A stretch of DNA of 64,000 bases from NCBI GenBank assembly GCA_002171125.1, contig NHHK01000020.1:7629-71628 (forward strand), in the 5' to 3' direction. The notes beneath the pieces were generated by a model that did not search any database, had not been told where the DNA came from, and worked only from the letters and a program-made list of their open reading frames with translations. This document shows positions 5,242-48,824 of this stretch, piece after piece. The translations under genes and the position numbers were made by a program. The stretch comes from a bacterium TMED161. Lineage in GTDB: Bacteria; Fidelibacterota; Marinisomatia; SCGC-AAA003-L08; D37C17. Numbering within the stretch: the stretch's first letter is position 1; each line of letters begins with the position of its first letter.

Positions 5242-5276
5242 ATTAAACAATTTTTCTTCTCCTAGTTTTTTAAATG

Positions 5277-5350
<74 letters not shown>

Positions 5351-5441
5351 AAGGCATCTAATTTATCTTTTTTTAATACTTATCTCAAAATAAAATAATC
5401 AAATATTTTGAAAACTTGTCTTTATAAAGTTAATTTATAGC

Positions 5442-5933
5442 ATGAATAATAATATTAAAGATGTATTTTTAATTATTTTAGCCTCATTATTTTTTGGAGT
5501 TTGTAGAGTTTTTTTTCTAGAAGATATTGCTTTTATAAAGCAGCCTACAAAATTGATATCTGATGATGAACTTGTGAATATGCAACTTGATGGACCAAAA
5601 GTAGTTACCATAAGTCAATGTAAAGAAATGTTTGATCAGAAATCAGCATTTTTTATTGATGCTAGAGATAGTTTACTATATGATGAAGGACATATTTTAG
5701 GAGCTATTAATATTCATTTTGAATCAAACGATGACGACCAGATTTTAAGTAGATTAGAGGGAGTAGAAGAAAATAATTTTTTAATTATATACTGTAGTGG
5801 GGGCGACTGTGATTTAAGTGAGGAATTAGGAAATCATCTCTTTGAATATTTAGGCTATACAAATATTTTATTATATGAGGGAGGATTCCCTGAATGGAAA
5901 GAAAATGGATATGAAGTCAATTCTAGAAAGTAG
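5442..5933 (+). CDS. Membrane-anchored rhodanese-domain sulfurtransferase
   Basis: N-terminal hydrophobic helix. Rhodanese signatures FFIDARD..YDEGHILGAINI and the active-site loop YCSGGDCDLS. Confidence 0.8.
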   Translation: MNNNIKDVFLIILASLFFGVCRVFFLEDIAFIKQPTKLISDDELVNMQLDGPKVVTISQCKEMFDQKSAFFIDARDSLLYDEGHILGAINIHFESNDDDQILSRLEGVEENNFLIIYCSGGDCDLSEELGNHLFEYLGYTNILLYEGGFPEWKENGYEVNSRK

Positions 5934-6366
5934 TTATTTGAATTATATAATTCGTCTTATTATGGGAATAGTATTTATCTATGCTAGTTATTCTAAAATT
6001 CTTGATCCTGTTTCATTTTCAAGCAATATACATAATTTTGGGGTAACACCTCTATATATTGAAAATCTAATTGCAATAGTGCTACCTTGGCTAGAGCTTT
6101 TTATAGGTTTAGGTCTCATCACCGGCATTAAATATCATGCGAGCATAGAGATCTCAATCTATTTAATGTGGGCTTTTACATTTTTAATTTTACAAGCTTA
6201 CCTAAGAGGAAAAAGTATTGATTGTGGCTGTTTTATGACAGATATATCTGCAAGCGATGCAGCAGAAAAACGCTTTGATATGTTAAAAAGAATATTTGAA
6301 GATATTGTGTTCTTAATTATGCTTTATAAACTAAAATATGATGCTAATAATAAAAAAACTCACTAA
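5905..6366 (+). CDS. MauE/DoxX-family membrane protein
   Basis: Four hydrophobic segments, N-terminal IRLIMGIVFIYASYSKILDP and a CGCF motif as in MauE-type proteins. The start is uncertain (ATG 5905 or 5911, overlapping the rhodanese gene end). Confidence 0.65.
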   Translation: MDMKSILESSYLNYIIRLIMGIVFIYASYSKILDPVSFSSNIHNFGVTPLYIENLIAIVLPWLELFIGLGLITGIKYHASIEISIYLMWAFTFLILQAYLRGKSIDCGCFMTDISASDAAEKRFDMLKRIFEDIVFLIMLYKLKYDANNKKTH

Positions 6367-6374
6367 TATATAGA

Positions 6375-7532
6375 ATGGTATTACGTTTAATATATATATC
6401 AGTTATAATTTTAGCAGGTTGCAATAAAAGTTATAGCCTACCTATTGACCTCACAATATTACACTCCTCTAGTGTTTGGGGCGAAACTGAGCCATGTGGC
6501 TGACCTAAAAACCCTTTGGGCGGTCTTGCCCGAAAAGCTAGTGTGATAGATAATGAGCGTTTAAATAATAATCGTCTTATAGTTGTAGATTCAGGTGATT
6601 TATTTTTTCATAAATCTGAGATGACATTTGAAAAGGATAACATTGAAGCAGCAAAGATTAAATCTGAAATAATTGTTAATTGTAATAATAAAATGAATTA
6701 TAACGCATTTACCCCTGGATCACGAGACTTTGCATTAGGACTCAAATATCTAAAAAAGTTAGAGTCGCAATCTAATTTCAACTATATATCTTGTAACTTA
6801 TATGATGTAGGTAATAGAAAAAGACTTTTTGATCCATATAAAATTGAAAATTATGACGGATTTAAGGTTGCGTATATTGGTGCGGCTTCTTCTTTTCAGA
6901 AAGATTCTATTTTAATAAGGGAGCCTATATCAGAAATTAAAAAAGTCTATAACGAGATATCTAGTGAAGCTGATTTTGTAATTGTTTTATTTAATGGGAC
7001 CAAACCAGACATGGATAGATTAAGTAAAAGCGGCATTGGCTTTGATCTTATTTTAAGAAGTGGTGGATCGAGTAGAGCTTCTGAAAATGGTGGCAATGGG
7101 GCAACTCCTTTATACGAAGCGGGCAATAAAGGTAAGTATTTAAATAAGATTAATATTGCATTGTCTAATATTGGCGCAGATTTAATTGATATTGATTTAT
7201 TGCAAAAAAAGATTAAACAATCTGAAAAGCACCTTAAAAATAAAAAATTAGGTGACCCTAATGGAAATCTCGATGAGATGTACAAAGATAAGCCAAAAAT
7301 ATTAGATACAATTAATAATCATAGAGATATAGTTAGGGCGTCAAATACAAAAATAAATAATGCTAAAAATATAATAAATACAAAAAAAATTGCATTGGAC
7401 ACAAAGGTTGATAGTAAAGTTGATATTCTATTTATTGTTGATGAAGGAATGGCAAAAATACCAAAAGGTCCTGAGATGAATGACCATAGAGGACGTGCTC
7501 CAGGGAACCCTCATCATGGACATAATCATTAG
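6375..7532 (+). CDS. Candidate selenoprotein: lipoprotein with a degenerate 5'-nucleotidase/metallophosphoesterase-like fold, C-G-U motif (in-frame TGA at 6501-6503) and a His-rich tail
   Basis: The ATG at 6375 encodes a lipobox signal peptide MVLRLIYISVIILAG-C. It is in the same frame as tracked ORF 6516..7532, and the only interruption is the TGA at 6501. Read-through gives LTILHSSSVWGETEPCG-U-PKNPLGGLARKA..VVDSGDLFF..TPGSRDFALG. A SECIS-like hairpin starts 11 nt after the TGA. Confidence 0.6.
6515..6535 (+). promoter_or_regulatory. SECIS-like hairpin downstream of TGA 6501
   Basis: UUUGGGC-GGUCUU-GCCCGAAA: a GGGC/GCCC core extended by U-A/U-G pairs, with a GGUC-containing apical loop. The spacer between the TGA and the hairpin is exactly 11 nt. 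Confidence 0.55.
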
Positions 7533-7612
7533 CTTTAAAGCCTATTAAAAATTATTGTGTTTTTTATGTTTTATTATATTAAAATATACAGCTTTGTTTT
7601 TTAGATAATTTT

Positions 7613-7685
7613 GCGAAAGTAGCTCAGCTGGTAGAGCATCACGTTGCCAACGTGAGGGTCGACGGTTCGAATCCGTTCTTTCGCT
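7613..7685 (+). tRNA. tRNA-Gly(GCC)
   Basis: Cloverleaf GCGAAAG..CTTTCGC acceptor, anticodon stem TCACG/CGTGA with loop TTGCCAA, T-loop TTCGAAT. Confidence 0.93.
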
Positions 7686-7689
7686 CAAT

Positions 7690-7715
7690 GGCCTCTTATT
7701 AAGAGGCCTTTTTTT
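7690..7715 (+). terminator. Rho-independent terminator-like hairpin between tRNA-Gly and tRNA-Cys
   Basis: GGCCTCTT-att-AAGAGGCC followed by TTTTTTT. Confidence 0.6.
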
Positions 7716-7789
7716 GGCGTCGTGGCCAAGTGGTAAGGCAGAGGTCTGCAAAATCTCCATCACCAGTTCGAATCTGGTCGACGCCTCCA
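7716..7789 (+). tRNA. tRNA-Cys(GCA), 3' CCA encoded
   Basis: GGCGTCG..CGACGCC acceptor, anticodon loop CTGCAAA, T-loop TTCGAAT, discriminator T followed by genomic CCA. Confidence 0.92.
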
Positions 7790-7793
7790 ACTA

Positions 7794-7879
7794 GCCGAGG
7801 TGGTGAAATTGGTAGACACAAGGGACTTAAAATCCCTCGAACAGTAATGTTCGTGCCGGTTCGATTCCGGCCCTCGGTA
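7794..7879 (+). tRNA. tRNA-Leu(UAA), long variable arm
   Basis: GCCGAGG..CCTCGGT acceptor (G1:U72 wobble), anticodon stem AGGGA/TCCCT with loop CTTAAAA, variable arm CGAACAGTAATGTTCG, T-loop TTCGATT. Confidence 0.9.
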
Positions 7880-7884
7880 CAAAT

Positions 7885-12683: not shown

Positions 12684-14483
12684 ATGAAAAATCAAGAAAA
12701 TATAAATGTTATTTTAGCTACGGATTGTGGTTCTACTACAACAAAATCAATTTTAATTGAAAAAATTGATGGAGAGTATCGTCTATCACATAGAGGTGAA
12801 GCTCCCACGACTGTTGAGGCACCATTTGAAGATGTTACTCGTGGAGTAATAAATGCAATAACGGAGCTTGAGGAGCTTTCTGAGCGTAAAATTTTAGATG
12901 GAGAAAAATTTATAAATACATCTTCTGATAATAAAAATGGTATAGATCTTTATATATCAACAAGCTCAGCTGGTGGTGGTCTTCAAATGATGGTCGCGGG
13001 TGTTGTTAAAAATATGACAGGCGAAAGCGCCCAAAGAGCTGCCCTTGGTGCAGGATCTATTGTAATGGATATCATTGCATCAAATGATGGTCGAAAATAT
13101 CATGAAAAAGTAAAAAGGATAAGAGAGTTAAGACCTGATATGGTTTTATTGTCTGGAGGAGTAGATGGAGGTACTAAATCCCATGTTGTTGAGTTATCAG
13201 AAATTCTAGCTGCAGCTAATCCACGCCCTAGACTAGGTAATAATTATAAACTTCCAATAATCTATGCTGGAAATAAAGAAGCGCGAAAAGAAGTTAATAA
13301 GACTTTGGTTGATAAAATAGACCTTAAAATGGTAGATAATATAAGGCCGACGCTTGAAGTGGAAAACTTACAGCCTAGTCGCGATAAAATTCATGATTTA
13401 TTCATGGATCATGTTATGGCACAGGCTCCTGGTTATGACAAGTTAAAAAAATGGACGCATTGTCCAATTATGCCAACTCCTGGTGCCGTTGGAGAAATAA
13501 TTAAAAGAATTGCTAAAAAAGAGCAAATATCTGTTGTTGGAGTTGATATAGGAGGTGCAACTACAGATGTTTTTTCAGTTTTTGAAGATAAGTTTAATCG
13601 AACTGTAAGTGCAAATTATGGAATGAGCTATTCAATATGTAATGTGCTTGCAGATGCTGGTGTGGAAAATGTATCCAGATGGCTTAGTCATGAGCTCGAA
13701 GAGTCTGACCTAACAAATAGAATAGCTAATAAGATGATTCGCCCGACAACAATCCCTCAAACTCTTGATGAATTAATTGTTGAGCAAGCAATAGCTAGGG
13801 AAGCGCTTAGATTGTCATTTGATCAACATAAAAAGTTTGCAGTTTCATTAAAAGGAGTTCAGCAAGAAAGAACAATTTCAGATACATTTGATCAGACAAT
13901 GTCTGGGGAAACTTTAGTTAATATGCAAGACCTAGATATGATTGTTGGTTCAGGAGGCGTTTTATCTCACGCTCCAAGAAGAGAACAGGCCTGTAAGATT
14001 TTAATTGATTCCTTTCTTCCAGAAGGGATCACTGAATTATCAGTAGATTCAATTTTTATGATGCCACAACTTGGAGTTTTAGCTTCTGTTCATGAAAAAG
14101 CAGCTATAGAAGTTTTTAATAAAGATTGCCTTGTTCGTTTAGGGACATGTATTGCCCCTTTAGGTGAAGGTGAAATAGGTCAAGAAATATTAGACTATGC
14201 TATTTTTGTCGAAGGAGAAAAGCATATAGGTACCCTTAAGTATGGTGAGATAAAAGTTATTAAGGCTAAATATATCGAATGTAAAGCAAATTTAAACTTG
14301 AAAGGTAATTTCTCTATCCAAAATAAAAGTATTTTTGAAGGCACTGTTTATGGAGGAGAGGTTGGTATTGTTTTAGATGGAAGAGGAAGGCCATTTAACT
14401 TTAATATGAAAACGGAAAATAGGAAGTCTCTAATTGACAATTGGAGAAATACAATTAATGAATATCCTAATTTGGAGATATAA
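12684..14483 (+). CDS. GlmL/MutL-family ASKHA-fold ATPase-like protein (cluster gene A)
   Basis: Two actin/hydantoinase-type phosphate loops, ILATDCGSTTTK and VVGVDIGGATTDVF. Size and layout match the glutamate-mutase accessory GlmL family. Confidence 0.8.
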   Translation: MKNQENINVILATDCGSTTTKSILIEKIDGEYRLSHRGEAPTTVEAPFEDVTRGVINAITELEELSERKILDGEKFINTSSDNKNGIDLYISTSSAGGGLQMMVAGVVKNMTGESAQRAALGAGSIVMDIIASNDGRKYHEKVKRIRELRPDMVLLSGGVDGGTKSHVVELSEILAAANPRPRLGNNYKLPIIYAGNKEARKEVNKTLVDKIDLKMVDNIRPTLEVENLQPSRDKIHDLFMDHVMAQAPGYDKLKKWTHCPIMPTPGAVGEIIKRIAKKEQISVVGVDIGGATTDVFSVFEDKFNRTVSANYGMSYSICNVLADAGVENVSRWLSHELEESDLTNRIANKMIRPTTIPQTLDELIVEQAIAREALRLSFDQHKKFAVSLKGVQQERTISDTFDQTMSGETLVNMQDLDMIVGSGGVLSHAPRREQACKILIDSFLPEGITELSVDSIFMMPQLGVLASVHEKAAIEVFNKDCLVRLGTCIAPLGEGEIGQEILDYAIFVEGEKHIGTLKYGEIKVIKAKYIECKANLNLKGNFSIQNKSIFEGTVYGGEVGIVLDGRGRPFNFNMKTENRKSLIDNWRNTINEYPNLEI

Positions 14484-15589
14484 TGTCAAAATCGTACACA
14501 CCGGGTCTTAAGGTTTTAGAAAAAACTACGATTCAAAAAGAACGATTGCTTCCTTTAAAAGGAAAAGTTCATGTAGATAATTATCAAATTGTTGATGCAA
14601 ACCATATAGTCGCTTCGACTAAAATACCTGGTAATATTCAAATGATTAATATTGCTAATGAGTTAAATATTGATGCTGATCAAATTAAGGAATCTATGTT
14701 GTGCACTATTGATGAGTCTGTTTCAAAAGGCCAAGTTATTGCACGAAGTAAGGGACTTTTTGGATTTTTTAAGTCCGAAGTAAGGTCTCCTCTAGATGGT
14801 GTAATTGGTAATATTTCAGATGTTACAGGACAAGTCATAATCTCTGAAGCTCCTATTCCTATTGAAATCGATGCTTATGTTTCAGGTAAAGTAAATTCAA
14901 TAATTGATAAAGAAGGTGTTGTAATTAATTCAAGTGGGATGCTGATTCAAGGTATTATTGGAATTGGTGGTGAGAAAAAAGGAAAGATAAAAATTTTTAA
15001 TGAAACTGACACTGACTTTTCTAGTATTGAACAGGATGATATTTTAATTTTGAAATCTACATTAACATATGATCTTTATCAAAAAATAAATGATTTAAAT
15101 ATACAAGGTATAGTTTGTGGTGGAATAGATTATCAGACTTTAACAAAGATTTTAAAAAAGCCACTTGGAGTTGCAATTACTGGTATGGAAGATACTACAA
15201 CAATTATAGTTACTGAAGGTTTTGGCGATATATCTATGGCAGATAGAACTTATCAATTATTAAAAAACAATGTTTCTAAAATAGCATCAATAAATGGTGC
15301 AACTCAAATTAGAGCAGGTGTTATGCGTCCTGAAATTTTCATTGGCTCAACAGATAAGTCTATAGTTGAGGATTCTTTTGATGAAGATAAATTAGCAATT
15401 TCTATTGGCTCTAAAGTTCGAATAATTAGAGAACCATTCTTTGGGCTGATTGGAGAGGTAATAGAATTACCGAAAGAATTAGTTACTATTGATACCGAGA
15501 CAACTTCAAGGGTGGCTAAGATTAAGCTGAATGACGATAGTTATGAAATTATACCCAGAGCAAATTTAGAAGTTATATTATTAGATTAA
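14483..15589 (+). CDS. Soluble protein with barrel-sandwich-hybrid segment and C-terminal KOW/SH3-like segment (cluster gene B)
   Basis: TAATG overlap with gene A. SKGQVIARSKG..VRSPLDGVIGNI resembles lipoyl/biotinyl-type hybrid barrels but lacks the M-K-M attachment site. GSKVRIIREPFFGLIGEVIEL is KOW-like. Confidence 0.6.
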   Translation: MSKSYTPGLKVLEKTTIQKERLLPLKGKVHVDNYQIVDANHIVASTKIPGNIQMINIANELNIDADQIKESMLCTIDESVSKGQVIARSKGLFGFFKSEVRSPLDGVIGNISDVTGQVIISEAPIPIEIDAYVSGKVNSIIDKEGVVINSSGMLIQGIIGIGGEKKGKIKIFNETDTDFSSIEQDDILILKSTLTYDLYQKINDLNIQGIVCGGIDYQTLTKILKKPLGVAITGMEDTTTIIVTEGFGDISMADRTYQLLKNNVSKIASINGATQIRAGVMRPEIFIGSTDKSIVEDSFDEDKLAISIGSKVRIIREPFFGLIGEVIELPKELVTIDTETTSRVAKIKLNDDSYEIIPRANLEVILLD

Positions 15590-15607
15590 TTGTATTAATT
15601 TAGTAAG

Positions 15608-15865
15608 ATGATCAAAGACCAAAATATAATATCAACTTTTGCAAAAGAAATAGTTGAAAGAGGCATGTCAGTCCCAGCTATCTTTTTTTTAGAAAGTACA
15701 AAATATATATCTTTTATTGGTAGCCAGTTTCTTGTTTTCTTAGGCCCACTCGCAACATGTTTTATTAATAATAAAAAATATTATAATCTTGCAGAGTTAC
15801 TTGAAGATCGAACTAATATAGAATTTTTAATCAACGAAATCGAGAGATTGAGTATAAAAAATTAA
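15608..15865 (+). CDS. Small two-helix membrane protein (cluster gene C)
   Basis: 85 aa with two hydrophobic stretches. Its stop lies 1 nt before the next start. Confidence 0.5.
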   Translation: MIKDQNIISTFAKEIVERGMSVPAIFFLESTKYISFIGSQFLVFLGPLATCFINNKKYYNLAELLEDRTNIEFLINEIERLSIKN

Positions 15866-15866
15866 T

Positions 15867-16733
15867 ATGAACAAATCTATTAAATATACATTACTCTCTT
15901 CTTTAATAATTTTGTTTTATTTTTTTATACCTTTACCAATTTTTCTCGTTGGGAATGAAACAACTTTTGTTTGTGTGATTTTATTATGCTTTGTTGTTGA
16001 GTATTTTATTGAATCTGCCAAAAGTGGAGAGCCTATTTATATGAGACCTATAGCTGCGATAAAGGCTATGGAGGAAGCCGTAGGTAGAGCTACTGAAATG
16101 GGCACCCCAGTCTTATATGTTCCTGGGATATCTAGCTTAGATCAAATTGATACAATTTCCGGACTAACTATTTTAGGCCATGTTGCCGGCATGACTGCTG
16201 AATATGAGGCGAATTTGCATGTACCTGTATGTGTTCCGATTGTTATGGAAACAGCAAAAGAAACATGTAAAGAGTCCTATTTGAAAAAGGGAAGGCCTGA
16301 CTTGTATAGAAATGATATGGTTCATTATGTAACAGATGACCAATTTGCATATGCGGCAGGAGTTAATGGAATTATGTTGAGAGAAAAGCCAGCAGCTGTA
16401 TTTTTTCAGGGAAAATTTTATGCTGAATCATTAATTCTAGCAGAAACAGGAAACTCTATTGGAGCAATTCAAATAGCAGGTACTGGTTCATCATCGCAGA
16501 TTCCTTTCTTTGTAACTGCATGTGATTATACTTTAATTGGTGAAGAATTTTATGCGGCTTCTGCATATTTATCCGGAAGTCCTGAGATGCTAGGAAGTAT
16601 TAAGGGGCAAGATTATGTGAAAGTTGGCTGCATGATTGCCATTCTGATAGTTTTTATTTCATCCCTATTAAATGGTTATGGAATTATTGACTTTAATATT
16701 GAAAGTTTATTTAGGACTAATGTAGTTAAGTGA
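15867..16733 (+). CDS. Membrane protein: N-terminal TM helices, ~200-aa alpha/beta domain, C-terminal TM helix (cluster gene D)
   Basis: Hydrophobic N- and C-termini flank a polar domain (GTPVLYVPGISSLDQ..AGTGSSSQIPFFVTACD). No family recognised. Confidence 0.6.
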   Translation: MNKSIKYTLLSSLIILFYFFIPLPIFLVGNETTFVCVILLCFVVEYFIESAKSGEPIYMRPIAAIKAMEEAVGRATEMGTPVLYVPGISSLDQIDTISGLTILGHVAGMTAEYEANLHVPVCVPIVMETAKETCKESYLKKGRPDLYRNDMVHYVTDDQFAYAAGVNGIMLREKPAAVFFQGKFYAESLILAETGNSIGAIQIAGTGSSSQIPFFVTACDYTLIGEEFYAASAYLSGSPEMLGSIKGQDYVKVGCMIAILIVFISSLLNGYGIIDFNIESLFRTNVVK

Positions 16734-17533
16734 AAAGGCAAATTGCATATTTTTTAGTAATATTTATTGGTTTTTTAACCCTATTAGGCCATTTTATTAA
16801 TTATCCTCCACTGAACGACTTTATAGATAATGACGCAACTCAATGGTTTGATATTATATCTGGATTTGCTGCATTTTTAGGTGTTATTAATTTATTACAA
16901 TTACATCTTAATAAAGTTGCGAATAAAAGAAAACATTATCAATATAGTATAATTACACTATTTGGATTTATTATTATGATAATTTTTGGTTTTATTTATA
17001 ATGGATCTAATGTTCCAATGGGACCACACCTTAAGGAAGAAGGCTCTGCATTTTATTGGATGTTTCAGAATATATATCTACCTCTTGGAGCAACCATGTT
17101 TGCTTTGCTAGCATTTTTTGTAGCTTCTGCATCCTACCGTGCTTTTAAAATTAGAAATTTCGAAGCTACATTGTTATTAGTTTCTGGAATATTTTTAATG
17201 CTTGGAAGAGTGCCTGTAGGTCAATTAATACCATGGTGGCTATCCCTCGAAATTTATATATGTCTTATTTTTGCAATTGCTGCGGGATTATTTGCTAATA
17301 AAAAAACATTGTTTTATACTTTGTTAATATCAATGATAATATTTCCCTTTATAATTTTACAATTAAATCTATCTCAATTAGCTATTTTTAAAATTCCAGA
17401 TTTGCAAGAATGGATAATGGATGTTCCTGCGACAGCTGGTTCAAGAGCAATCATGATTGGAATTGCATTAGGAACAATAGCTCAATCGTATAGAATTATA
17501 ACTGGTAGAGAAAGGTCAATCTTAGGTGACTAA
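16730..17533 (+). CDS. Polytopic membrane protein (cluster gene E)
   Basis: GTG start overlapping the previous TGA (GTGA). About 7 hydrophobic segments. No family recognised. Confidence 0.6.
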   Translation: MKRQIAYFLVIFIGFLTLLGHFINYPPLNDFIDNDATQWFDIISGFAAFLGVINLLQLHLNKVANKRKHYQYSIITLFGFIIMIIFGFIYNGSNVPMGPHLKEEGSAFYWMFQNIYLPLGATMFALLAFFVASASYRAFKIRNFEATLLLVSGIFLMLGRVPVGQLIPWWLSLEIYICLIFAIAAGLFANKKTLFYTLLISMIIFPFIILQLNLSQLAIFKIPDLQEWIMDVPATAGSRAIMIGIALGTIAQSYRIITGRERSILGD

Positions 17534-18440
17534 ACTTTTTACTAATATAAAAAACTATTTAATTGATTTAGGTAAGCTTGATAGGAGGTATATATTTTTA
17601 CTTATAGGTTTATCTGTTTTAATTCCTTTGATGAAACCTAATTGGATAAATATACCTATAAAAACTACAAATAATTCTCAGATTGTATTTAATGAACTCA
17701 ATAAGCTAAATGAAGGCGATAGGGTTTTAGTCTCTTTTGAATATGGAGCTAGTACTAAACCAGAAATTCACCCTATGTCTGTCGCAGTTTTACAGCATTT
17801 ATTCTCTAAAGGTGTAAAAGTATATACAGTACCGCTTTGGCCAGAAGGTTTAATGATGGCAAAGTATGCCATTCAAGAAGTAGTAGATTCTAAGTTGTTT
17901 AATATAAAAGAACATGTTGATTATGTCAGTCTTCCATATAAAGCAGGTGGAGAGATTATTATACGCGGCATTGCAACAGATCTTCGTTCAATATTTACGC
18001 AAGATGTAAACAATATTTTGTTAAAAGAAATACCAATGATGAAAGGTGTTAATCGAGTTTCAGACTTTGACTTTGTTTTTGACTTATCTGCTGGTGTACC
18101 TGGTAACGCAGAATGGGTGCAGTTTGCCTGTGATGAATATAAGGTGCCATTATCATCTGGATGCACTTCTATAATGGTTACAGATGCTATCCCTTATGTT
18201 GAATCAGGACAAATCAGAGGAATCTTAGCTGGCATGCCAGGAGCAGCTGAATATGAGCAGATGGTATTTAAATATTTGAATAGTTTAGACAAAAATAAAT
18301 ATATGAATCCAGATATAGCAGTGGTGCCAGGTAAGGCAACATCAAGAATGTCAGCACAATCTATTGCACATGTATTAATGGTTGTGTTTATTATCCTAGG
18401 AAATATCTCATATTATCTTCTAAGAAGGAGAGCTGAGTAA
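17526..18440 (+). CDS. Membrane protein with the same TM / alpha-beta domain / TM layout as gene D (cluster gene F)
   Basis: GTG start with an 8-nt overlap. N-terminal TM, a polar domain (DRVLVSFEYGAS..SSGCTSIMVTDAIPYV) and a C-terminal TM. Confidence 0.6.
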   Translation: MTKLFTNIKNYLIDLGKLDRRYIFLLIGLSVLIPLMKPNWINIPIKTTNNSQIVFNELNKLNEGDRVLVSFEYGASTKPEIHPMSVAVLQHLFSKGVKVYTVPLWPEGLMMAKYAIQEVVDSKLFNIKEHVDYVSLPYKAGGEIIIRGIATDLRSIFTQDVNNILLKEIPMMKGVNRVSDFDFVFDLSAGVPGNAEWVQFACDEYKVPLSSGCTSIMVTDAIPYVESGQIRGILAGMPGAAEYEQMVFKYLNSLDKNKYMNPDIAVVPGKATSRMSAQSIAHVLMVVFIILGNISYYLLRRRAE

Positions 18441-19162
18441 TGTATGAGTTAATAGGAGTTTGGTGTGTTGTACTATTAACACTAAGTATATTTAGTTACC
18501 TCTATGGTGACAATCCATTTTATAAGGCGGCAGAGCATATATTTGTAGGTGTTTCAGCTGGATATGTATTTACAATAACATTTTGGGATACGATTTGGCC
18601 TAATCTATTTGGAAGATTATTCCCTAAATATGTTGGTGCGGGTTTTAGCTTTGATATAACATATATCTTCCCTTTGATTCTTGGTGTATTTATGCTTTTT
18701 AGACTTTCAAAAAAATATGATTGGCTTTCTCGTATTTCAATCGCTTACATCGTAGGCATGATGGCCGGATTAAAATTTTATGTATTTCTTAATTCAAATT
18801 TATTGACTCAAATCAAAAGCTCAACAGTTAATCTATCTGGTACTTACTTCAGTATATTTAATGATTTAATTATTTTAGTTGGTGTTATTTCTGGACTTGT
18901 TTACTTTTTCTTTTCTAAAGAACATACTGGAGCATTAGGAAAAATAAGTAGAATTGGAGTTTATTTCCTTATGATTAAGTTTGGAGCATCTTTTGGCTTT
19001 GCAGTTATGGGAAGAATATCACTTTTGATAGGTAGGTTTGAAGAACTTATAGAATTCAGTAAGCCAGAGTATTACTATTCAACTCCAGTAACTTTATTAA
19101 TTATGATAATGATCATAGGATATTGGGCGTATAAAGATAATACTAAACCTTTAGAAAAATAA
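18440..19162 (+). CDS. Polytopic membrane protein (cluster gene G)
   Basis: TAATG overlap with gene F. About 6 hydrophobic segments. No family recognised. Confidence 0.6.
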
Positions 19163-19175
19163 TTTTGAGGAGACT

Positions 19176-20708
19176 ATGGAAGATATTTTAAAAGAATTAT
19201 TGATTCAAAAAGAAAATTACGGTTCGTGCATTGGAGGTGAGGGTTGGTTAGAGACAACAAATCTAGGTGAGTTTAAATCAATAAATCCATCAAATGGTGA
19301 TCAAATAGCATCAGTATATAAATGTTCTGACCAAGATTATGAAAAAGTTGTAAAATATTCATCCGAAGCATTTAAAGAATGGAGAAAAGTACCTGCCCCA
19401 GAAAGAGGGCAATTAATTTTTGAGATGGGAAATAAATTAAGAGAACATAAAGATGCTCTTGGTAGTTTAGTATCATTAGAAATGGGAAAAATAAAAGCAG
19501 AAGGTGATGGGGAAGTTCAGGAGATGATTGATATTGCTGATTTTGCTGTTGGATTATCTAGGCAGCTTTATGGCCTCACAATGCACTCTGAGCGTCCAGA
19601 TCATAGAATGTATGAGCAGTGGCATCCAATTGGTAATGTTGGAATTATTTCTGCATTTAATTTTCCAGTAGCTGTATGGGCATGGAATTCTTTTATAGCT
19701 GCTATATGTGGAAATATTTCAATTTGGAAGCCATCTGAAAAGACGCCATTAACTGCAATTGCAGTTCAAAATATTTGTAATCAGGTCTTAAAAGAAAACA
19801 ATCTTAAGGGAATCTTTAACTTAGTCGTTGGCACCGGCGATGAAATTGGTAAAAAATTAGTAAATGATAATAGAATTCCCCTTATTTCAGCCACTGGTTC
19901 AACAAGAATGGGAAAGACTGTTGCTCAGGATGTAGCTAAACGTCTAGGGAAGACTATACTAGAATTAGGTGGAAATAATGCCATTATTGTTGATGAGACT
20001 GCCAGTATGAATTTAGTAGTACCAGCAATAGTTTTTGGTGCAGTAGGTACTGCTGGTCAAAGATGTACTTCAACTAGACGAATTATTGCTCATTCATCTA
20101 TTATGGATGATTTAGCCTCAAAATTAGTTAGCGCATATAGTCAAGTAAAAATTGGAGACCCACTTGATGCTAATACTTTAATGGGTCCACTTATTGATCA
20201 GATGGCAATTGATAATTATAAAAATGCTATAGATAAAGCAAAAGAGGAGGGTGGTGAGGTCCTTTGTGGTGGGAATCCAATTCAATTTAATAATGGTTTT
20301 TTTGTTGAACCAACTATTATTAAGGTTGAAAGTGATTTTGAAATTGTCAAAGAAGAGACTTTTGCACCAATCTTATATATAATGAGTTATAATAATTTAG
20401 AAGAAGCTATTGATATCCATAATGATGTACCACAAGGGTTGTCTTCGGCAATATTTACGAATAATGTTATTAATTCTGAAAGATTTTTATCTGCCAGAGG
20501 AAGTGACTGTGGAATTGCAAATGTAAACATAGGAACCTCTGGTGCAGAAATAGGTGGTGCATTTGGAGGAGAAAAAGAGACAGGTGGTGGACGGGAATCT
20601 GGTTCAGATTCATGGAAAGCATACATGAGACGACAAACAAATACAATTAATTGGAGTCATGATCTTCCGTTAGCACAAGGAATTAAATTTGATTTGGAGA
20701 ATAATTAA
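19176..20708 (+). CDS. ALDH7-type aldehyde dehydrogenase (alpha-aminoadipic semialdehyde / piperideine-6-carboxylate dehydrogenase)
   Basis: GAGGAG Shine-Dalgarno sequence. Aldehyde dehydrogenase motifs ELGGNNA and catalytic GQRCTSTRR. The N-terminal and C-terminal regions ([14 protein letters not shown]) are typical of the ALDH7/AmaB group. Confidence 0.8.
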
Positions 20709-22060
20709 TGATTAAAGCAAATGATGTTAAAGGTATACTATCAAAAAATATTTTAGCTGATGGTTTTACCCCAATAATGGATTTAGAAAAAAGTAAAGGT
20801 TCCTATATAGTTGATCAATTGAAAGGTGAAAAACATTTAGATATGTTCTCTATGTTTGCTTCAGCTTCCATAGGATACAATCACCCTAAAATTGTAGAAA
20901 ATACTGATTTGCTTGGTAAGGTTGCAAAAATAAAACCTACATTGTCAGATTTGTATAATGTTTATTATGCTGAATTTTTAGATACATTTAATAGAATTGC
21001 AATTCCAGACTACTTACCTCATGCTTTTTTTATAGAAGGTGGCTCATTGGCGGTTGAAAATGCCCTTAAAATTGCATTTGACTGGAAAGTTCGGAAAAAT
21101 CTTGAATCAGGAAAAGGAAAGAAAGGCTCACAAATAATTCATTTTAAGCAAGCTTTTCATGGAAGATCTGGATATACAATGTCATTAACAAATACGACGG
21201 ACCCACGAAAAACAATGTATTTTCCAAAATTTGATTGGCCCAGAATTGAAAATCCATATCTAAGTTATCCAATTACTTCAGATATTATTGAAAATGTTAT
21301 TAAAAATGAACAAATTGCTATAAATCAGATTAAAGATGCATTAACTAAAAACAAAGATGATATCGCAGGATTAATTATTGAGCCAATTCAAGGTGAAGGA
21401 GGTGATAATTTTTTTAGATGTCAATTTCTTCAAATGCTAAGAGATCTTGCAAATGAAAATGAATTTCTTCTTATTTATGATGAGGTCCAAACTGGTATCG
21501 GGATTACTGGAAAAATGTGGGCACATCAAAATTATACACCTAATTTATGTGAGTGTGACCCTCCAATTATAGAAAAGCCTATTCCTGATGTTATGTCATT
21601 TGGTAAAAAGACTCAAGTATGTGGAGTATTAGCAGGTAAAAGAGTCGAAGAAGTCGACAAGCATGTATTTAATGAATCTAGCAGAATCAATTCTACTTTT
21701 GGTGGAAATCTTGTGGATATGATGAGATTTAAATTAATACTAGAAGTTATAGAAGAAGAGAATTTATTAGATAATGCAAAAAAAGTAGGTAGTTACTTGC
21801 TTTCCGAATTAGAAAATCTTGAACATAGTTATCCTGCCTATTTAACAAACTCTAGAGGTTTAGGGCTATGGGCAGCTTTTGACCTTCCTTCAATGACAGA
21901 AAGAGATGAGTTGTGGAGTAGAATGCTTGCAAATAAACTTCTAATATTGCCTTCAGGAGATAAATCTATAAGGTTTAGACCTCATTTGAATGTTAATAAA
22001 GAAGAAATTGATGAAGCTATAGGTATTATTGAAATGTCAATAAAACAATGCCTAAAATAA
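20708..22060 (+). CDS. lat: L-lysine 6-transaminase (class III aminotransferase)
   Basis: The N-terminus LADGFTPIMDLEKSKGSYIVD..FSMFASASIGYNHP and the PLP-lysine region SFGKKTQVCG match the LAT family. TAATG-coupled to the ALDH7 gene. Confidence 0.75.
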   Translation: MIKANDVKGILSKNILADGFTPIMDLEKSKGSYIVDQLKGEKHLDMFSMFASASIGYNHPKIVENTDLLGKVAKIKPTLSDLYNVYYAEFLDTFNRIAIPDYLPHAFFIEGGSLAVENALKIAFDWKVRKNLESGKGKKGSQIIHFKQAFHGRSGYTMSLTNTTDPRKTMYFPKFDWPRIENPYLSYPITSDIIENVIKNEQIAINQIKDALTKNKDDIAGLIIEPIQGEGGDNFFRCQFLQMLRDLANENEFLLIYDEVQTGIGITGKMWAHQNYTPNLCECDPPIIEKPIPDVMSFGKKTQVCGVLAGKRVEEVDKHVFNESSRINSTFGGNLVDMMRFKLILEVIEEENLLDNAKKVGSYLLSELENLEHSYPAYLTNSRGLGLWAAFDLPSMTERDELWSRMLANKLLILPSGDKSIRFRPHLNVNKEEIDEAIGIIEMSIKQCLK

Positions 22061-39471: not shown

Positions 39472-40128
39472 ATAGTTACGACACAAATATTTCCAAAATG
39501 GGCTAATTATGCACCAGTCATTGCAGCTGTTTTAGGGGCTGGAGCGCTCGGGTCTGTTGTTTTCTTTTTTTCTTATTTTGGTTCACCCAAATTTACAGAT
39601 GTAGGTTATCGTCCAGATCAGCCTGTAGATTATTCCCACAAACTTCATGCGGGTGAACTTGGAATGGATTGCAGATATTGTCACACTTCTGTGGAAGCTT
39701 CGCACGAGGCCAATATTCCTCCGACTCAAACTTGTATGAATTGCCACAATATTGTTGATGTTGATGCCGATGAATTAGCTTTAGTTCAAGAAAGTTGGAA
39801 AACTGGTAAGCCAATTGAGTGGGTAAAGGTTCATATGCTACCAGACTATGCTTATTTTAATCATGCAGTTCATGTTGATGCTAATATAGGCTGCGCAAGT
39901 TGTCATGGCAGAATTGATCAAATGGAGATTGTTGAACAGGCTGAGCCACTTAGTATGGGATGGTGTTTAGATTGTCATAGAGACCCAGCTAAACATATTA
40001 GACCAGATAATGTCAGTGTTACGCAAATGGATTGGGTAGCTCCAGAAGGACATGAAGAAATTATGAATGAATATATAAAAATACATGGAATATCACCTCC
40101 AGAGGATTGCACAGCATGTCACAGATAA
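39472..40128 (+). CDS. actA: Alternative Complex III subunit ActA (pentaheme cytochrome c), start codon unresolved
   Basis: Five CxxCH motifs (CRYCH, CMNCH, CASCH, CLDCH, CTACH). The frame upstream of the tracked ATG 39664 encodes the expected TM anchor (FPKWANYAPVIAAVLGAGALGSVVFFF). It has no ATG/GTG/TTG after the in-frame TAA at 39460. Confidence 0.8.
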   Translation: MVTTQIFPKWANYAPVIAAVLGAGALGSVVFFFSYFGSPKFTDVGYRPDQPVDYSHKLHAGELGMDCRYCHTSVEASHEANIPPTQTCMNCHNIVDVDADELALVQESWKTGKPIEWVKVHMLPDYAYFNHAVHVDANIGCASCHGRIDQMEIVEQAEPLSMGWCLDCHRDPAKHIRPDNVSVTQMDWVAPEGHEEIMNEYIKIHGISPPEDCTACHR

Positions 40129-43100
40129 AAAATAAAAACGATAAAACTTACTGGAGAAGCCTTAGTGACAAAATGGGCTCAGATGATATAAAATCCTTTC
40201 TAGTAAATGAATTCCCTGAGGGTACATCAGAGCTAGCTGATACTATGACAAGAAAGAAGTTTTTGTCATTAATGGGTGCATCTATGGCTATGGCTGGACT
40301 TGTAGGATGCAGAAAACCTGTGCAAAAAATAATTCCATATGTAGATGCCCCTGAAGATGTAATTCCAGGTATACCTAATTATTTCGCTACAACTGTTCCC
40401 ATTGGACTTAATGCATTTGGTGCAATAGTTGAAAGTCATGTTGGTAGACCAACTCACATTGAGGGTAATAAAAATCACCCACAATCAAAAGGAAGTGTCA
40501 ACTCCTTTATTCAAGCATCTATTTTAGATCTATATGATCCAGATAGGGTGAAAGAGCCAATATCAGCAAATGAAAACTCCACATTAGATAAATTTTCAGA
40601 TAAGATATCTTCAATTAGCGAATCAAGCAATACTGCATTTATCACAAAAACAATTAATTCCCCTTCTACAATAGAACTAATTGATAAAGTTAAGAAAAAA
40701 TTCCCAAAATCATCGTGGACATCCTTTGATTTAGATTCAAAAGAAAATCAAATCATTGGCATAAAGCAAGTAACTAATAAAGATTTAATTCCATTTTATC
40801 AATTTGATAAGGCTAAAGTTGTTTTATCTATAGATTCTGATTTCTTATCTGGGGATCAGACTTCAATTCATAACCAAAAAACTTTTTCTAAAGCAAGAAG
40901 AGTAAAAAAGTCTACAGATTCAATGAATAGACTTTATTGTATTGAAAGTACTTTAACAAGTACAGGAATGATGGCTGACCATAGATTTAAAATCAAACCT
41001 AATGAAGTCTATAATTTTTTAGCTGAACTAAATAACCAATTAATTAAAAAAGGCCTTTTCAACTTAGAGAAAATTGAAGTTACAGGAATACATTTTGAGG
41101 AAAAATACTTAAAAATGATAAAAGTACTAGCTGGAGATCTGGTGAAAAACAGATCTAAATCAATTATAACAGCTGGTGATCCCTTGTCATCTGAAGTGCA
41201 TTCATTAGTCTTTTTGTTAAACCAAGAGCTAGGAAATAATAATAAAACCATTAGATATACATCTGTTTCTGAATCAATTAGGCCGGAGCTTGCATCTGCA
41301 ATTGATTTAGTAGATCGAATTAATAATAAGAAAGTAGACAATTTATTTATACTAGATTTAGATTTTGTTCACCTATTTTCTCATATGCTTAAAGATTCAT
41401 TGTCGAACTTAGTTCAAAATATTTTCTATATTGGTTCTCATAGAGATTTGACTTCAATGCAATCTAACTGGACTATTCCTATAAGTCATTATTTAGAAAC
41501 CTGGGGTGATGCACGTAGTGTAGATGGAACATTATCTATTATTCAGCCTTTGATTCGTCCTCTATATAATTCAATTTCATTAAATGAATTTTTATCTTTA
41601 TTGATTGGAGATAGAAAAACTGACTATAGAATCCTTAAAGACTCAAATTTATGGAGATTAAAAAATAAAGCAAGTTTCAGGAAAGTAATCCATGATGGTT
41701 ACTTGAAGTCTTCTACATTGTCCAATGTTGTGAATGTTAAAAAAGTTAACATTAAGCCCTTGAAAAATATTTTTTCCCAGATTAGGAAAAATTTAATCAA
41801 AGGTAAATCAGATAATTTAAATGTTAGGTTTAGTCTTTCTTCACAGATTTATGATGGTAGGTATATGAATAATTTCTGGCTTCGAGAAGTACCTGATGCG
41901 GTAAGTAAAATAAGCTGGGAGAATGTAGCTTTAGTTAGTCTTCAAACTGCAAAAGATTATAATTTGAGTAATTCTGATTTAGTTAAACTATCTACCAAAG
42001 TTAATGGTAAGTCAGCAAGTATAGAAGCTCCAATATGGATTCTTCCTGGATTACCAAATAATTCAGTGATACTAGAGATGGGGTATGGAAGAGTTATTGA
42101 AAGAGAAGTTGATAGAACATATATAGATGAAGGGATATTGGGTTATAACGCTCTAAGCGTTAAAGATCCAAACTCCTATTTTGATTCTATTGAATTATCT
42201 AAAGTAAATAAAAAACATCCTGTTGCGTGTGTTCAAGATCATCATGGCCTTGATATAGAGGGTCTAGCTGCGGATGAAGTTGACAAGAGACTTCCTGAGA
42301 TTATAAGAGAATCAACCCTTGAAGAATATAAAAAAGATGATGACTTTGTTGATTATTATGATAAAAAATGGCATATACCCAAAAAGAATGAAGATATACC
42401 ATCAATGTACCCTTCTCACGACTATACAAAAGGGCCTCAATGGGGGATGAGTATCGATTTAAATGTATGTAGTGGGTGTAATGCTTGTGCTATTGCATGT
42501 CAAAGTGAAAATAATATACCAGTGGTAGGCAAACAGCAAGTTATGGATGGCAGAGAAATGAGCTGGATACGCATGGATCGATATTTTAAGGGTGATGCTG
42601 AAAATCCAGAGTTTGCCTTGCAACCAGTTGCATGTTTGCATTGTGAAAATGCTCCATGCGAGCAAGTGTGTCCAGTTGCGGCAACAGTCCATGATGAAAA
42701 TGGTTTAAATGGTATGGCATACAATAGGTGCATAGGTACAAGGTACTGTGCAAATAATTGTCCATATAAAGTCAGAAGATTTAATTTTTACAATTATACT
42801 GTAGATACACCAGATGTAGTTCAAATGGCTGCAAATCCAGATGTAACTGTTAGGTTTAGAGGCGTAATGGAAAAATGCACCTATTGCGTACAAAGAATTC
42901 ATGCTGCCGAAATTAAAGCTAAACTTGAAGATAGAGATCTTAGAGATTCAGATGTGAATGTAGCATGTCAATCTGCTTGCGCAATGGATGCAGTGAAGTT
43001 TGGAGATATTACTGATCCAGATAGTGAAGTATCAAAAGCAAAAGCTCTAAGTCATGACTACTCGCTACTTAAAATGCTAAATACAAAGCCACGAACAACA

Positions 43101-43184
43101 TATTTAGCAAAGCTCAGAAATCCTCATCCAGAATTGGTTGAACATAAAGACCAAAAAGAGCATTATGAAGGTGGACATCACTAG
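40116..43184 (+). CDS. actB: Alternative Complex III subunit ActB (molybdopterin-like domain fused to 4Fe-4S ferredoxin domain)
   Basis: Tat-like leader TRKKFLSLMGASMAMAGLVGC. C-terminal Fe-S motifs CSGCNACAIACQSEN, CLHCENAPCEQVCP, CIGTRYCANNCPYKVRRFN. Gene order actABCDEF. Confidence 0.9.
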   Translation: MSQIKNKNDKTYWRSLSDKMGSDDIKSFLVNEFPEGTSELADTMTRKKFLSLMGASMAMAGLVGCRKPVQKIIPYVDAPEDVIPGIPNYFATTVPIGLNAFGAIVESHVGRPTHIEGNKNHPQSKGSVNSFIQASILDLYDPDRVKEPISANENSTLDKFSDKISSISESSNTAFITKTINSPSTIELIDKVKKKFPKSSWTSFDLDSKENQIIGIKQVTNKDLIPFYQFDKAKVVLSIDSDFLSGDQTSIHNQKTFSKARRVKKSTDSMNRLYCIESTLTSTGMMADHRFKIKPNEVYNFLAELNNQLIKKGLFNLEKIEVTGIHFEEKYLKMIKVLAGDLVKNRSKSIITAGDPLSSEVHSLVFLLNQELGNNNKTIRYTSVSESIRPELASAIDLVDRINNKKVDNLFILDLDFVHLFSHMLKDSLSNLVQNIFYIGSHRDLTSMQSNWTIPISHYLETWGDARSVDGTLSIIQPLIRPLYNSISLNEFLSLLIGDRKTDYRILKDSNLWRLKNKASFRKVIHDGYLKSSTLSNVVNVKKVNIKPLKNIFSQIRKNLIKGKSDNLNVRFSLSSQIYDGRYMNNFWLREVPDAVSKISWENVALVSLQTAKDYNLSNSDLVKLSTKVNGKSASIEAPIWILPGLPNNSVILEMGYGRVIEREVDRTYIDEGILGYNALSVKDPNSYFDSIELSKVNKKHPVACVQDHHGLDIEGLAADEVDKRLPEIIRESTLEEYKKDDDFVDYYDKKWHIPKKNEDIPSMYPSHDYTKGPQWGMSIDLNVCSGCNACAIACQSENNIPVVGKQQVMDGREMSWIRMDRYFKGDAENPEFALQPVACLHCENAPCEQVCPVAATVHDENGLNGMAYNRCIGTRYCANNCPYKVRRFNFYNYTVDTPDVVQMAANPDVTVRFRGVMEKCTYCVQRIHAAEIKAKLEDRDLRDSDVNVACQSACAMDAVKFGDITDPDSEVSKAKALSHDYSLLKMLNTKPRTTYLAKLRNPHPELVEHKDQKEHYEGGHH

Positions 43185-44576
43185 ATGAGTGATACTAATA
43201 AAAATATAGAACAGATGAATGATATTCAAGAAGCTCCTTTAGTTCTAGGAAATCATACTTTTGGTTCAATTACCGAGAAAATAAGTTCGATTACTGAAAC
43301 TCCTCCTCCAAAAGGATGGTGGCTTGCATTTTTATTTTCACTTTCTTTACTTGGCCTTTTACAGGTATCAATACTTTATCTAATTTGGGAAGGTACTGGT
43401 ATCTGGGGCTTGAATAATCCCATTGGTTGGGGATGGGCAATTGTTAATTTTGTATTTTGGGTTGGTATAGGTCATGCGGGTACGCTTATATCTGCTGTAC
43501 TTTTTTTATTTAGGCAAAAATGGAGAACTGCAATTAATAGATTTGCAGAGGCGATGACAATTTTTGCAGTTATGTGTGCACTTATTTTTCCTGGAATTCA
43601 TATTGGTAGAGTGTGGGTTGCCTATTATATGTTCCCAATCCCAAATTCAATGTTAATGTGGCCAAACTTCAGAAGCCCATTGCTTTGGGATGTATTTGCT
43701 GTTGGTACATATTTTACTGTTTCTCTTCTTTTTTGGTATGTTGGATTAATTCCTGATTTTGCTACATTAAGGGATAGAGCTAAAACTAAAGTCCGTAAAG
43801 TTGTATATGGTATTCTTGCCTTAGGGTGGAGATCTAGTAATAGACATTGGCAAAATTATGAGCAAGCTTACTTAATGTTGGCTGGACTATCAACACCTCT
43901 AGTTCTTTCTGTCCATAGTATTGTGAGTACTGACTTTGCGATAAGCTTACTTCCTGGATGGCATACAACAATATTTCCACCTTACTTTGTAGCAGGTGCT
44001 ATTTTCTCAGGCTTTGCAATGGTTATCACTCTTGCAATACCTGTTAGATATATATATGGCCTCGAATCAATAATTACAATGGGTCACCTTGATAAGATGG
44101 CTAAAATTATGCTAGTAACAGGTTCAATGGTTGGCTATGCATATTCAATGGAATTCTTTATAGCATGGTACAGTAATAATACCTATGAATCTTTTGCATT
44201 TGTAAATAGAGCTTTTGGACCCTATGCATGGGCTTATTGGATCATGATTTCATGTAATGTTATCGTACCACAGTTATTCTGGTCTAAAAAATTAAGAAAT
44301 AGTATCCCTGTCTTGTTTATAGCTTCTATATTTGCAAATATCGGAATGTGGTTTGAACGATTTGTCATAGTAATTAGTTCTCTATCTAGAGATTATCTGC
44401 CTTCAAACTGGGATTACTATTCACCAACCATATGGGATGTAACTTTATTTCTAGGATCATTTGGACTCTTCTTTACTTTATTCTTATTATTTTTAAGATT
44501 TATGCCAATGATAGCAATTTCTGAGGTTAAAGGTGTAATGCCCGAAGCAGACCCTCATCATGGAGAGAAGCACTAA
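43185..44576 (+). CDS. actC: Alternative Complex III subunit ActC (NrfD/PsrC-like quinol-interacting membrane subunit)
   Basis: Polytopic NrfD-like protein ([23 protein letters not shown]). Position after actB. Confidence 0.9.
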
Positions 44577-45112
44577 TGACACCTAAAAATTTATATGGTA
44601 TGTTAGCAGAATTTCAGACGCCTAAAGAAATCTTAGATGCAGCTAATGCTGTAAGAAAAGAGGGATATATTGATTTTGATTGCCATACACCTTTCCCCGT
44701 ACATGGCCTTGATGATGCAATGGGGTTAAAACGCTCAATAGTTGGATTTATTGTAGGAATAGGGTGCGTAGTTGGAGCCACTGCTGGATTAACACTTCAA
44801 TGGTGGTCTAGTACTATCGCTTATCCAATAATAATATCAGGTAAGCCATTATTTAGTTGGCAAGCGTTTATGATTATAACATTTGTTTTAATGGTCCTTG
44901 GAGGTGCTTTTTCTGCATTAATTGGAATGTTTCATCTTAATCGGATACCAACATTTTACCATCCATTATTTAACTCAGAACAATTCAAAAAAGCTACTGA
45001 TGATAAGTTCTTTGTGAGCATTGAATTTAAAGATCCTAAATTTGATATAGAAGATACTAGGAAATTTTTAGAAATTATTGGTGGAAAGAATATTGAGGTA
45101 ATAGAAGAATGA
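44576..45112 (+). CDS. actD: Alternative Complex III subunit ActD
   Basis: TAATG-coupled. N-terminus LYGMLAEFQTPKEILDAANAVRKEGY followed by two TM helices, the typical ActD layout. Confidence 0.8.
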   Translation: MTPKNLYGMLAEFQTPKEILDAANAVRKEGYIDFDCHTPFPVHGLDDAMGLKRSIVGFIVGIGCVVGATAGLTLQWWSSTIAYPIIISGKPLFSWQAFMIITFVLMVLGGAFSALIGMFHLNRIPTFYHPLFNSEQFKKATDDKFFVSIEFKDPKFDIEDTRKFLEIIGGKNIEVIEE

Positions 45113-46816: not shown

Positions 46817-47085
46817 TGGGTTTTGATTTAACAGGATACGAAGAAGACAATATGGATGTAAGGCCTTTGGCCACTTATACAATTGGTGCTATTATTGCCT
46901 TAGTAATCGTAATTGTTGGAATTTACTATTATATGTTTTTTATGGGAGAGAAATATATTCAAGAGCTATTTTTAGAAAGAGATACAATGCAAACTCTTGA
47001 ATATAATAAACAGAAAACTGAATTTCTTAGTTCATCAAAATTAGAAACTGGAATGGCAAAAGCTCTAGAGAATTACAATGAATAA
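46816..47085 (+). CDS. Small single-pass membrane protein between actF and the oxidase genes (possible ActG-like or oxidase accessory subunit)
   Basis: 89 aa with one TM helix (ATYTIGAIIALVIVIVGIYYYMFF). TAATG-coupled to actF. Confidence 0.5.
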   Translation: MGFDLTGYEEDNMDVRPLATYTIGAIIALVIVIVGIYYYMFFMGEKYIQELFLERDTMQTLEYNKQKTEFLSSSKLETGMAKALENYNE

Positions 47086-48813: not shown

Positions 48814-48824
48814 AAAGAGGAACA

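Follow-up and report, generated by a model that had tools for sequence, protein, structure and literature searches.

A 64,000-nucleotide stretch of contig NHHK01000020.1 from bacterium TMED161 (GCA_002171125.1; hereafter the window, G+C content 30.8%) contains a reading frame that raises the question of whether a TGA codon near its beginning ends a protein or encodes one of its residues. The frame opens with ATG at position 6375 and runs for 385 codons to the TAG at 7530–7532, and its sole interruption is the TGA at 6501–6503; the mechanical list of open reading frames (ORFs) contains only the 338-codon part that begins with TTG at 6516. When the TGA is read through, the product starts with MVLRLIYISVIILAG-C, a signal peptide with a lipobox whose cysteine is residue 16, continues across the codon in question as ILHSSSVWGETEPCG-TGA-PKNPLGGLARK, and ends with GNPHHGHNH. 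Both the single interrupted frame and the lipobox leader had been proposed in an earlier examination of the letters alone (the sequence-only reading), and both were confirmed. As argued below, the in-frame TGA is real and almost certainly encodes selenocysteine (Sec, U) in a secreted nucleotidase-like lipoprotein. The region 6375–7532 is very probably a single intact gene of a Candidatus Neomarinimicrobiota (SAR406) bacterium, and its product, a selenoprotein that is exported and lipid-anchored, is the short form of the published UshA-like CxU family.

The conservation of the TGA was examined in orthologous loci collected by scanning one genome per species with a 21-sequence alignment, which yielded 249 relatives, of which 80 loci were kept. 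Almost all of these belong to Candidatus Neomarinimicrobiota (Marinimicrobia, Fidelibacterota), and the products of two metagenome-assembled genome (MAG) contigs, L001 and L002, are 93–94% identical to the window protein. TGA occupies the same column in 78 of the 80 species loci, including proteins as little as 26% identical, in the context (N/S)-V-(H/W)-G-E-x-(D/E)-P-C-G-TGA-x-K-x-P-L-G-G-L-(A/S)-R-K. About 40 codons on its 5′ side, which encode the signal peptide, the first β-strand and motif I, are conserved as protein, and the orthologue comparison places the UGA inside a frame that is conserved on both sides. Every one of the 80 orthologues begins with a leader sequence, which includes a lipobox in the window's clade and in some other clades. 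The two remaining loci have TGC (Cys) in the column, L053 reading PCDC and L080 reading PCGC; L080 is sister to L068, a locus with the TGA. Among the database relatives, 18 have a genuine C-G-C, 20 read PCGW, and 58 start artificially at the GGLARK motif after the TGA. Cysteine counterparts had been proposed as a check in the sequence-only reading, which also mentioned relatives with an EPCGC motif; such relatives do exist (P0066, EIEPCGC; P0110, ETEPCGC; and L080). Homologues starting at the equivalent of 6516, which the same reading had named as evidence that would speak against it, were encountered only as miscalled database entries, and the DNA upstream of their starts encodes the same N-terminus across the TGA. 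The His-rich tail is restricted to some clades and is absent from many Sec-containing orthologues (L033–L044 and L064–L079). One locus, L006 (PAOV01000033.1), is labelled as a Chloroflexota MAG; its rhodanese–MauE–selenoprotein–tRNA synteny matches that of the window, its protein is 43% identical, and it shares the PKNP motif with the window's clade, so it is probably a mis-binned marinimicrobial contig.

The hairpin UUUGGGC/GGUCUU/GCCCGAA, which starts exactly 11 nt past the TGA, had been likened to the selenocysteine insertion sequence (SECIS) of Escherichia coli fdhF on account of its GGUC loop, and across the orthologues it does behave as a SECIS. In the 52 sequences encoding LGGLAR (Ala group), pair 16–33 is never unpaired (28 distinct sequences with C-G, 20 with U-A), and pair 18–31 is G-C in 39 and U-A in eight, with one mismatch. 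The 21 sequences encoding LGGLSR (Ser group) have the stem register shifted by one nucleotide; here pair 18–30 is G-C in 11, A-U in nine and C-G in one, again with none unpaired, so that the third bases of the Leu/Ile and Ser codons show perfect covariation. The sites concerned are synonymous. In every one of the 79 sequences with TGA the loop's two Gly codons read GGC GGT, and five other conserved Gly residues of the protein use all four codons. In the Cys variant L053 the peptide is kept as LGGLPR and the GGUCU loop is lost. Because the TGA is conserved in 78 of 80 loci, the loop codons are invariant and the stem covaries, the hairpin exceeds what chance would produce, and these features indicate that it is a genuine SECIS under selection at the nucleotide level.

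Comparison with the fdhF element, read from the E. coli MG1655 record, revealed an identical register of GGUCU. Both hairpins lie within coding sequence, and both carry GGUCU at nt 22–26 counted from the U of UGA; the stem of the window element begins at nt 15, and G23 and U24 are exposed in its apical loop. They differ in loop size, which is 5–6 nt here and 4 nt in fdhF, and the lower stem of fdhF is missing from the window element. Nor is a bulged U evident in the latter: U17 is the same in all 73 sequences aligned and is predicted to be paired (with G in 48/48 distinct sequences, with A in 21/21). Within the family, the loop is a 6-nt GGUCUU or GGUCUG in the LGGLAR orthologues versus a 5-nt GGUCU in the LGGLSR orthologues (L045–L079), and the distance between GGUCU and the UGA is fixed. 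It is well supported by these comparisons that the UGA, together with an fdhF-like SECIS inside the coding sequence, would direct Sec insertion. SelB charged with Sec-tRNA(Sec) would bind the hairpin, a step that we infer, and place selenocysteine at codon 43; the resulting Cys41-Gly42-Sec43 would lie just past the first motif of the 5′-nucleotidase-type N-domain.

Several results weigh against this assignment. No selA, selB, selD or tRNA-Sec was present in the 64-kb window or in the 37 flanking loci fetched, and no experimental demonstration of selenium incorporation could be located in the literature for any family member. Rfam returned no SECIS match, either at its gathering threshold or up to an E-value of 10, and the folding energy of the hairpin was unremarkable compared with shuffled sequences (z = −1.36 for 40 nt and −0.15 for 56 nt). 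The fdhF SECIS performed no better (z = −1.29). Since folding energy is not significant for so short a hairpin, covariation and codon invariance were relied on instead.

Two other explanations of the TGA were weighed. If it were a true stop, the locus would be a pseudogene or an assembly error, or else would hold two genes, one for a lipopeptide of 42 codons and one for a protein of 338 codons from TTG 6516. ORF lists and most public gene calls do begin at the equivalent of 6516 (MGGLARK), yet in many orthologues the corresponding codon is CTG, CTA or CTT and no start codon at all. Moreover, the upstream part whose protein-level conservation is described above supplies the first β-strand and motif I of the fold, the TGA itself persists at identities down to 26%, and Cys stands in the place of the stop in the two loci and 18 database proteins mentioned, all of which makes a true stop very improbable. 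Reassignment of TGA to Trp or Gly, as in genetic codes 4 or 25, can draw on the W recorded at this column in 20 database relatives. The window has long uninterrupted ORFs; TGA terminates five of its 39 long ORFs, being an ordinary stop there, and it splits only five same-frame ORF pairs in the 64 kb, of which only 6375–7532 and a gene around position 60922 look coding. True homologues align Cys and not Trp or Gly, and the codon is followed by a dedicated, conserved hairpin. The W itself could be traced for one protein: L081, the contig behind the PCGW protein P0024, has TGA where P0024 has W and does not translate to P0024 under code 11, so the W of P0024 is a gene-calling artefact of code 4. 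We therefore give a reassigned code virtually no credence. In sum, the pseudogene, split-gene and reassigned-code readings were rejected because the TGA is conserved, is replaced by Cys and is otherwise an ordinary stop.

The same comparison documents how the selenoprotein is annotated at present. The public calls (P0001–P0040) are either truncated to the GGLARK start after the UGA or show Trp at the UGA, the Trp calls coming from the code-4 model picked for short AT-rich contigs. Public gene calls of the UshA-like selenoprotein family are almost always, and systematically, wrong.

The window holds a second selenoprotein gene, likewise of a known type, on the minus strand (61888–60377). There, ORFs of 322 and 168 codons form one frame joined by a TGA at 60922–60920 within the motif YYFGKAG-U-SLCRHR (UxxC). 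The joined product matches NF053656, a TUGYCR motif thioredoxin fold (seleno)protein, with 104.8 bits against a cut-off of 100, and also has a choice-of-anchor R domain; a peroxiredoxin gene (59641–60285) adjoins it. Ten nucleotides separate the TGA from the start of its hairpin, GACACCG/GUU/CGGUGUU. The sequence-only reading had counted two genes with the same 11-nt spacing and loop motif: the second TGA with a hairpin exists, but the spacing is 10 nt and the loop is GUU/GGUUC, not GGUC. This gene suggests, indirectly, that the genome decodes Sec elsewhere as well.

The sequence-only reading was upheld in its observation and in each part of its interpretation that could be checked. The novelty that it implied was not borne out, since the family had been published and is modelled in NCBIfam as NF041198. 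In the selenoproteome of the GOS metagenomes, "COG0737, UshA-like, CxU" is listed among the previously characterised families, with 76 Sec and 92 Cys sequences (Zhang & Gladyshev, 2008; PMC2398784), and the family also appears in later reviews (PMC9312934, PMC13188914). The supplement of the 2008 paper includes reads such as HGQLDPCGUKKNPLGGLSRK and GETDPCGUKKKPMGGLARK. Another read, MNIIKYSFLTVLIFLVSCTNTKEDVGGSVTLLVSTNVRGQLDPCGUKKNPLGGLSRK, has the N-terminus of locus L072; because of this identity, the published family can be equated with the marinimicrobial family described here. All sequence-level characters of the published family are found in the window protein, namely the homology of the N-domain to UshA/5′-nucleotidase, the conserved UGA, the Cys homologues, the C-x-U motif and the SECIS, and both are of marine origin. 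The window's clade is distinguished by PCGU-PKNP, by Trp in place of the motif I His, by the lipobox and by the PHHGHNH tail, and neither this clade nor its motif CGUPKNP was found in the accessible part of the supplement. That source gives no function, SECIS analysis or gene context for the family.

The relation to NF041198 ("UshA-like (seleno)protein", UshA_like_PCGU) was informative about the domain structure. This model is an equivalog of 519 positions with a cut-off of 275 bits; it was the best NCBIfam match of the read-through protein (E = 8.6e-57), followed by weaker matches to the CpdB, SoxB and UshA models. The window protein shares with it the N-domain, the P-C-G-U/C motif (here EPCG-TGA) and a helical middle region, but it reaches only 192.9 bits and covers model positions 6–372, and all short forms score between 165 and 207 bits. 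Proteins above the cut-off (P0177, 358 bits; P0183, 497; P0163, 381; P0140, 310) are about 460–540 residues long, P0177 and P0183 being about 540; beyond the shared part, at model positions of about 385–519, they have four CxxCH haem motifs. No CxxCH was present in the window protein or in any of the 80 marinimicrobial orthologues, which thus differ from the model by the lack of the C-terminal four-haem region. On these grounds the window gene is the short, haem-less form of the family. Four CxxCH motifs past the UshA-like domain were likewise seen in the long forms P0042, P0044, P0177 and P0183; P0042 adds a DsbA-like domain and has neither Cys nor Sec at the motif (YLEPYGYYKGRSGG). A related model, NF049981 (UshA-like selenoprotein family 2, CxxU), gave 41.3 bits against a cut-off of 140, and the motif of the window protein is CxU and not CxxU.

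The fold of the protein was approached by profile and structure comparison. Pfam gave no meaningful match for the read-through protein, neither to Metallophos nor to 5_nucleotid_C (PF02872), and the family profile matched the N-domains of solved structures of the 5′-nucleotidase family (3ivd, 1e-17; 3gve, 7e-16). An AlphaFold (AF2) model was built on P0001, which is 95% identical to the window protein and has W at the Sec column. The model had a confidence (pLDDT) of 86.6 and a predicted template-modelling score (pTM) of 0.84, and Foldseek aligned it with the E. coli 5′-nucleotidase (1oie, E = 4e-18) over the N-domain only. The C-terminal third came out as a helical hairpin with a small sheet, and there was no substrate-binding domain of the 5′-nucleotidase type. 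The description of the protein as a degenerate metallophosphoesterase in the sequence-only reading was correct: the fold is that of 5′-nucleotidases with the metal ligands largely replaced, and the changes it had pointed out, HTNDxHG to HSSSVWG and GNHEF to GSRDF, were borne out by the profile alignment to the solved structures. By that alignment (Table 1), about six of the canonical set of seven dimetal ligands are gone from the N-domain, and for this reason it is no ordinary phosphoesterase. With UshA/5′-nucleotidase, CpdB/YfkN and SoxB the window protein thus has in common the N-terminal calcineurin-like fold and the periplasmic location; unlike them, it has its metal ligands and catalytic His replaced, lacks the C-terminal nucleotide-binding domain and carries the Cys-Gly-Sec insertion after motif I.

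What the protein may do was considered together with its gene neighbourhood. Genes for a membrane-anchored rhodanese-domain protein and a MauE/DoxX-family membrane protein adjoin the selenoprotein gene as a pair in 54 of the 80 loci, upstream of it in L001–L044 and downstream in L045–L075; since the pair is found on either side, the linkage has outlived a rearrangement. A comparable pairing is known from Mycobacterium tuberculosis, in which DoxX is associated with a rhodanese in thiol homeostasis (as summarised in PMC8638967). The DoxX–SseA (rhodanese) complex resembles the present case in joining a membrane protein of the DoxX superfamily with a rhodanese, here encoded side by side. It is an analogy only: the membrane protein here scores 91 bits for MauE and 31 bits for DoxX, being nearer to the former, and there is no SodA partner. 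A literature search turned up nothing specific on a MauE–rhodanese link or on Sec use in Marinimicrobia. These neighbours suggest a periplasmic thiol/sulfur redox module.

A redox role was inferred because the metal site is gone, the long forms are fused to a tetrahaem cytochrome c, a fusion that implies electron transfer, and the rhodanese and MauE genes adjoin in 54 of 80 loci. In such a scheme the Cys/Sec pair would be a redox-active selenenylsulfide centre whose periplasmic substrate is a thiol or sulfane sulfur. Electrons would pass through the fused four-haem cytochrome c domain in the long-form relatives; in the short form the two neighbours, the membrane-anchored rhodanese and the MauE/DoxX protein, would take over this part. 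Such a centre, working on its substrate together with the neighbouring proteins, is the function we favour, albeit tentatively. It is conceivable, at a similar level of confidence, that the short-form selenoprotein, the rhodanese and the MauE/DoxX protein make up an undescribed periplasmic chalcogen (thiol, sulfane-sulfur, selenium) redox module, near-universal in SAR406/Neomarinimicrobiota, with Cys-Gly-Sec in the former dimetal site and with the module replacing the fused tetrahaem domain of the long forms. A redox role is weakened by the 26 of 80 loci that had no rhodanese or MauE neighbour within the fetched DNA and by the lack of informative conserved neighbours around the long-form and Cys-form relatives. 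In addition, although C-G-U lies six residues past motif I, the P0001 model has a pLDDT below 50 for residues 36–46, so that the geometry of this loop is unreliable.

Two other roles for the Sec-decoded protein were set against the redox centre. It may, in line with the metal or metalloid handling suggested in the sequence-only reading, bind or traffic such an element in the periplasm through Cys41, Sec43 and the PHHGHNH tail, without being a redox enzyme, and the retention of the His-rich tail in the window's clade and several others, as well as the soft Cys/Sec pair beside a decayed metal site, would fit this. The tail is nevertheless missing from the many Sec orthologues listed above, the fusion of the domain to four c-type haems in the long forms points to electron transfer, and the conserved neighbours are thiol/sulfur-transfer proteins and not metal transporters, which leaves a metal binder rather unlikely. 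That the protein is still a metal-using 5′-nucleotidase, phosphodiesterase or SoxB-like hydrolase could be argued from its fold and its detectable similarity to UshA, CpdB and SoxB. We regard this as highly unlikely: the Asp, His, Asn, catalytic His and the later His ligands are replaced or missing (S33, W35, S116, R117, N207; no GHxH), neither Pfam domain of such enzymes is matched, and the C-terminal substrate-binding domain is absent.

Table 1. Features of the selenoprotein locus and residues at the canonical metal-site positions (window coordinates)
Feature	Position	Strand	Basis
Short-form UshA-like CxU selenoprotein gene, complete, 385 codons, Sec = codon 43 (very probable)	6375..7532	+	Single frame with one TGA; NF041198 match, E 8.6e-57; orthologues in 80 species loci
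Lipoprotein signal peptide, lipobox LAG-C (Cys16)	6375..6422	+	Sequence reading; leader in all 80 orthologues, lipobox in closest
Degenerate metallophosphoesterase motif I, ILHSSSVWGE; Asp = Ser33, His = Trp35	6456..6485	+	Profile alignment to 3ivd/3gve; most relatives N-V-H
Cys41-Gly42-Sec43 (TGT GGC TGA), CxU motif	6495..6503	+	TGA in 78/80 loci, TGC in 2; CGC in 18 database homologues
SECIS hairpin, stem 6515-6521/6528-6534, loop GGUCUU 6522-6527, encodes (P)LGGLARK	6515..6534	+	Covariation; GGC GGT 79/79; fdhF register
Degenerate motif III, GSRDF for GNHEF	6717..6731	+	Profile alignment; G115 and D118 invariant in family
His-rich C-terminal tail PHHGHNH	7509..7529	+	Kept in window's clade and several others, missing from many
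Membrane-anchored rhodanese-domain protein, active-site loop CSGGDCD	5442..5933	+	PF00581, 69 bits; adjacent in 54/80 loci
MauE/DoxX-family membrane protein, CGC motif	5875..6366	+	PF07291, 91 bits; PF07681, 31 bits; adjacent in 53/80 loci
Canonical motif I Asp: Ser33 (N in most relatives)			Profile alignment
Canonical motif I His: Trp35 (H in most relatives)			Profile alignment
Canonical GD Asp: D75, sole ligand kept			Profile alignment
Canonical GNHEF: GSRDF (S116, R117)			Profile alignment
Canonical next His: Asn207			Profile alignment
Canonical GHxH motif: nothing equivalent			Profile alignment

Around the gene, the order tRNA-Ala(ggc), rhodanese, MauE, UshA-like selenoprotein, tRNA-Gly, tRNA-Cys, tRNA-Leu (5276–7880 of the window) is kept in L001–L044, which include very divergent Neomarinimicrobiota. 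The rhodanese ORF (end at 5933) and the MauE ORF (first ATG at 5875) share 59 nt, read in different frames, and the true start of MauE may be a later ATG, Met11 or Met13 of its ORF. Farther away, the regions 12684–22060 and 40107–53952 are those of an ordinary aerobic heterotroph chromosome, with a GlmL-like protein, genes of lysine catabolism (L-lysine 6-transaminase and piperideine-6-carboxylate dehydrogenase), an NrfD/DsrP-like membrane subunit (43185–44576), subunits II and I of an aa3-type cytochrome oxidase (47857–50450) and a haem A synthase (52942–53952).

What is new here is modest: quantitative evidence for the SECIS, the distinction of short and long forms, the rhodanese–MauE neighbourhood and the documented mis-annotation of the family. 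When annotated with the UGA read through, these proteins regain a signal peptide, the fold's first strand and the Cys-Gly-Sec of the active site. As the SECIS matches that of E. coli fdhF in loop and spacing, heterologous expression in E. coli may work, and the rhodanese and MauE neighbours together with the haem-fused long forms provide a concrete lead to a redox, not a hydrolytic, function. SAR406 is among the most abundant lineages of the deep ocean, and the selenoprotein is kept in nearly every species sampled; with such near-universal retention, a selenium-dependent activity in the periplasm is likely to be important to these bacteria.

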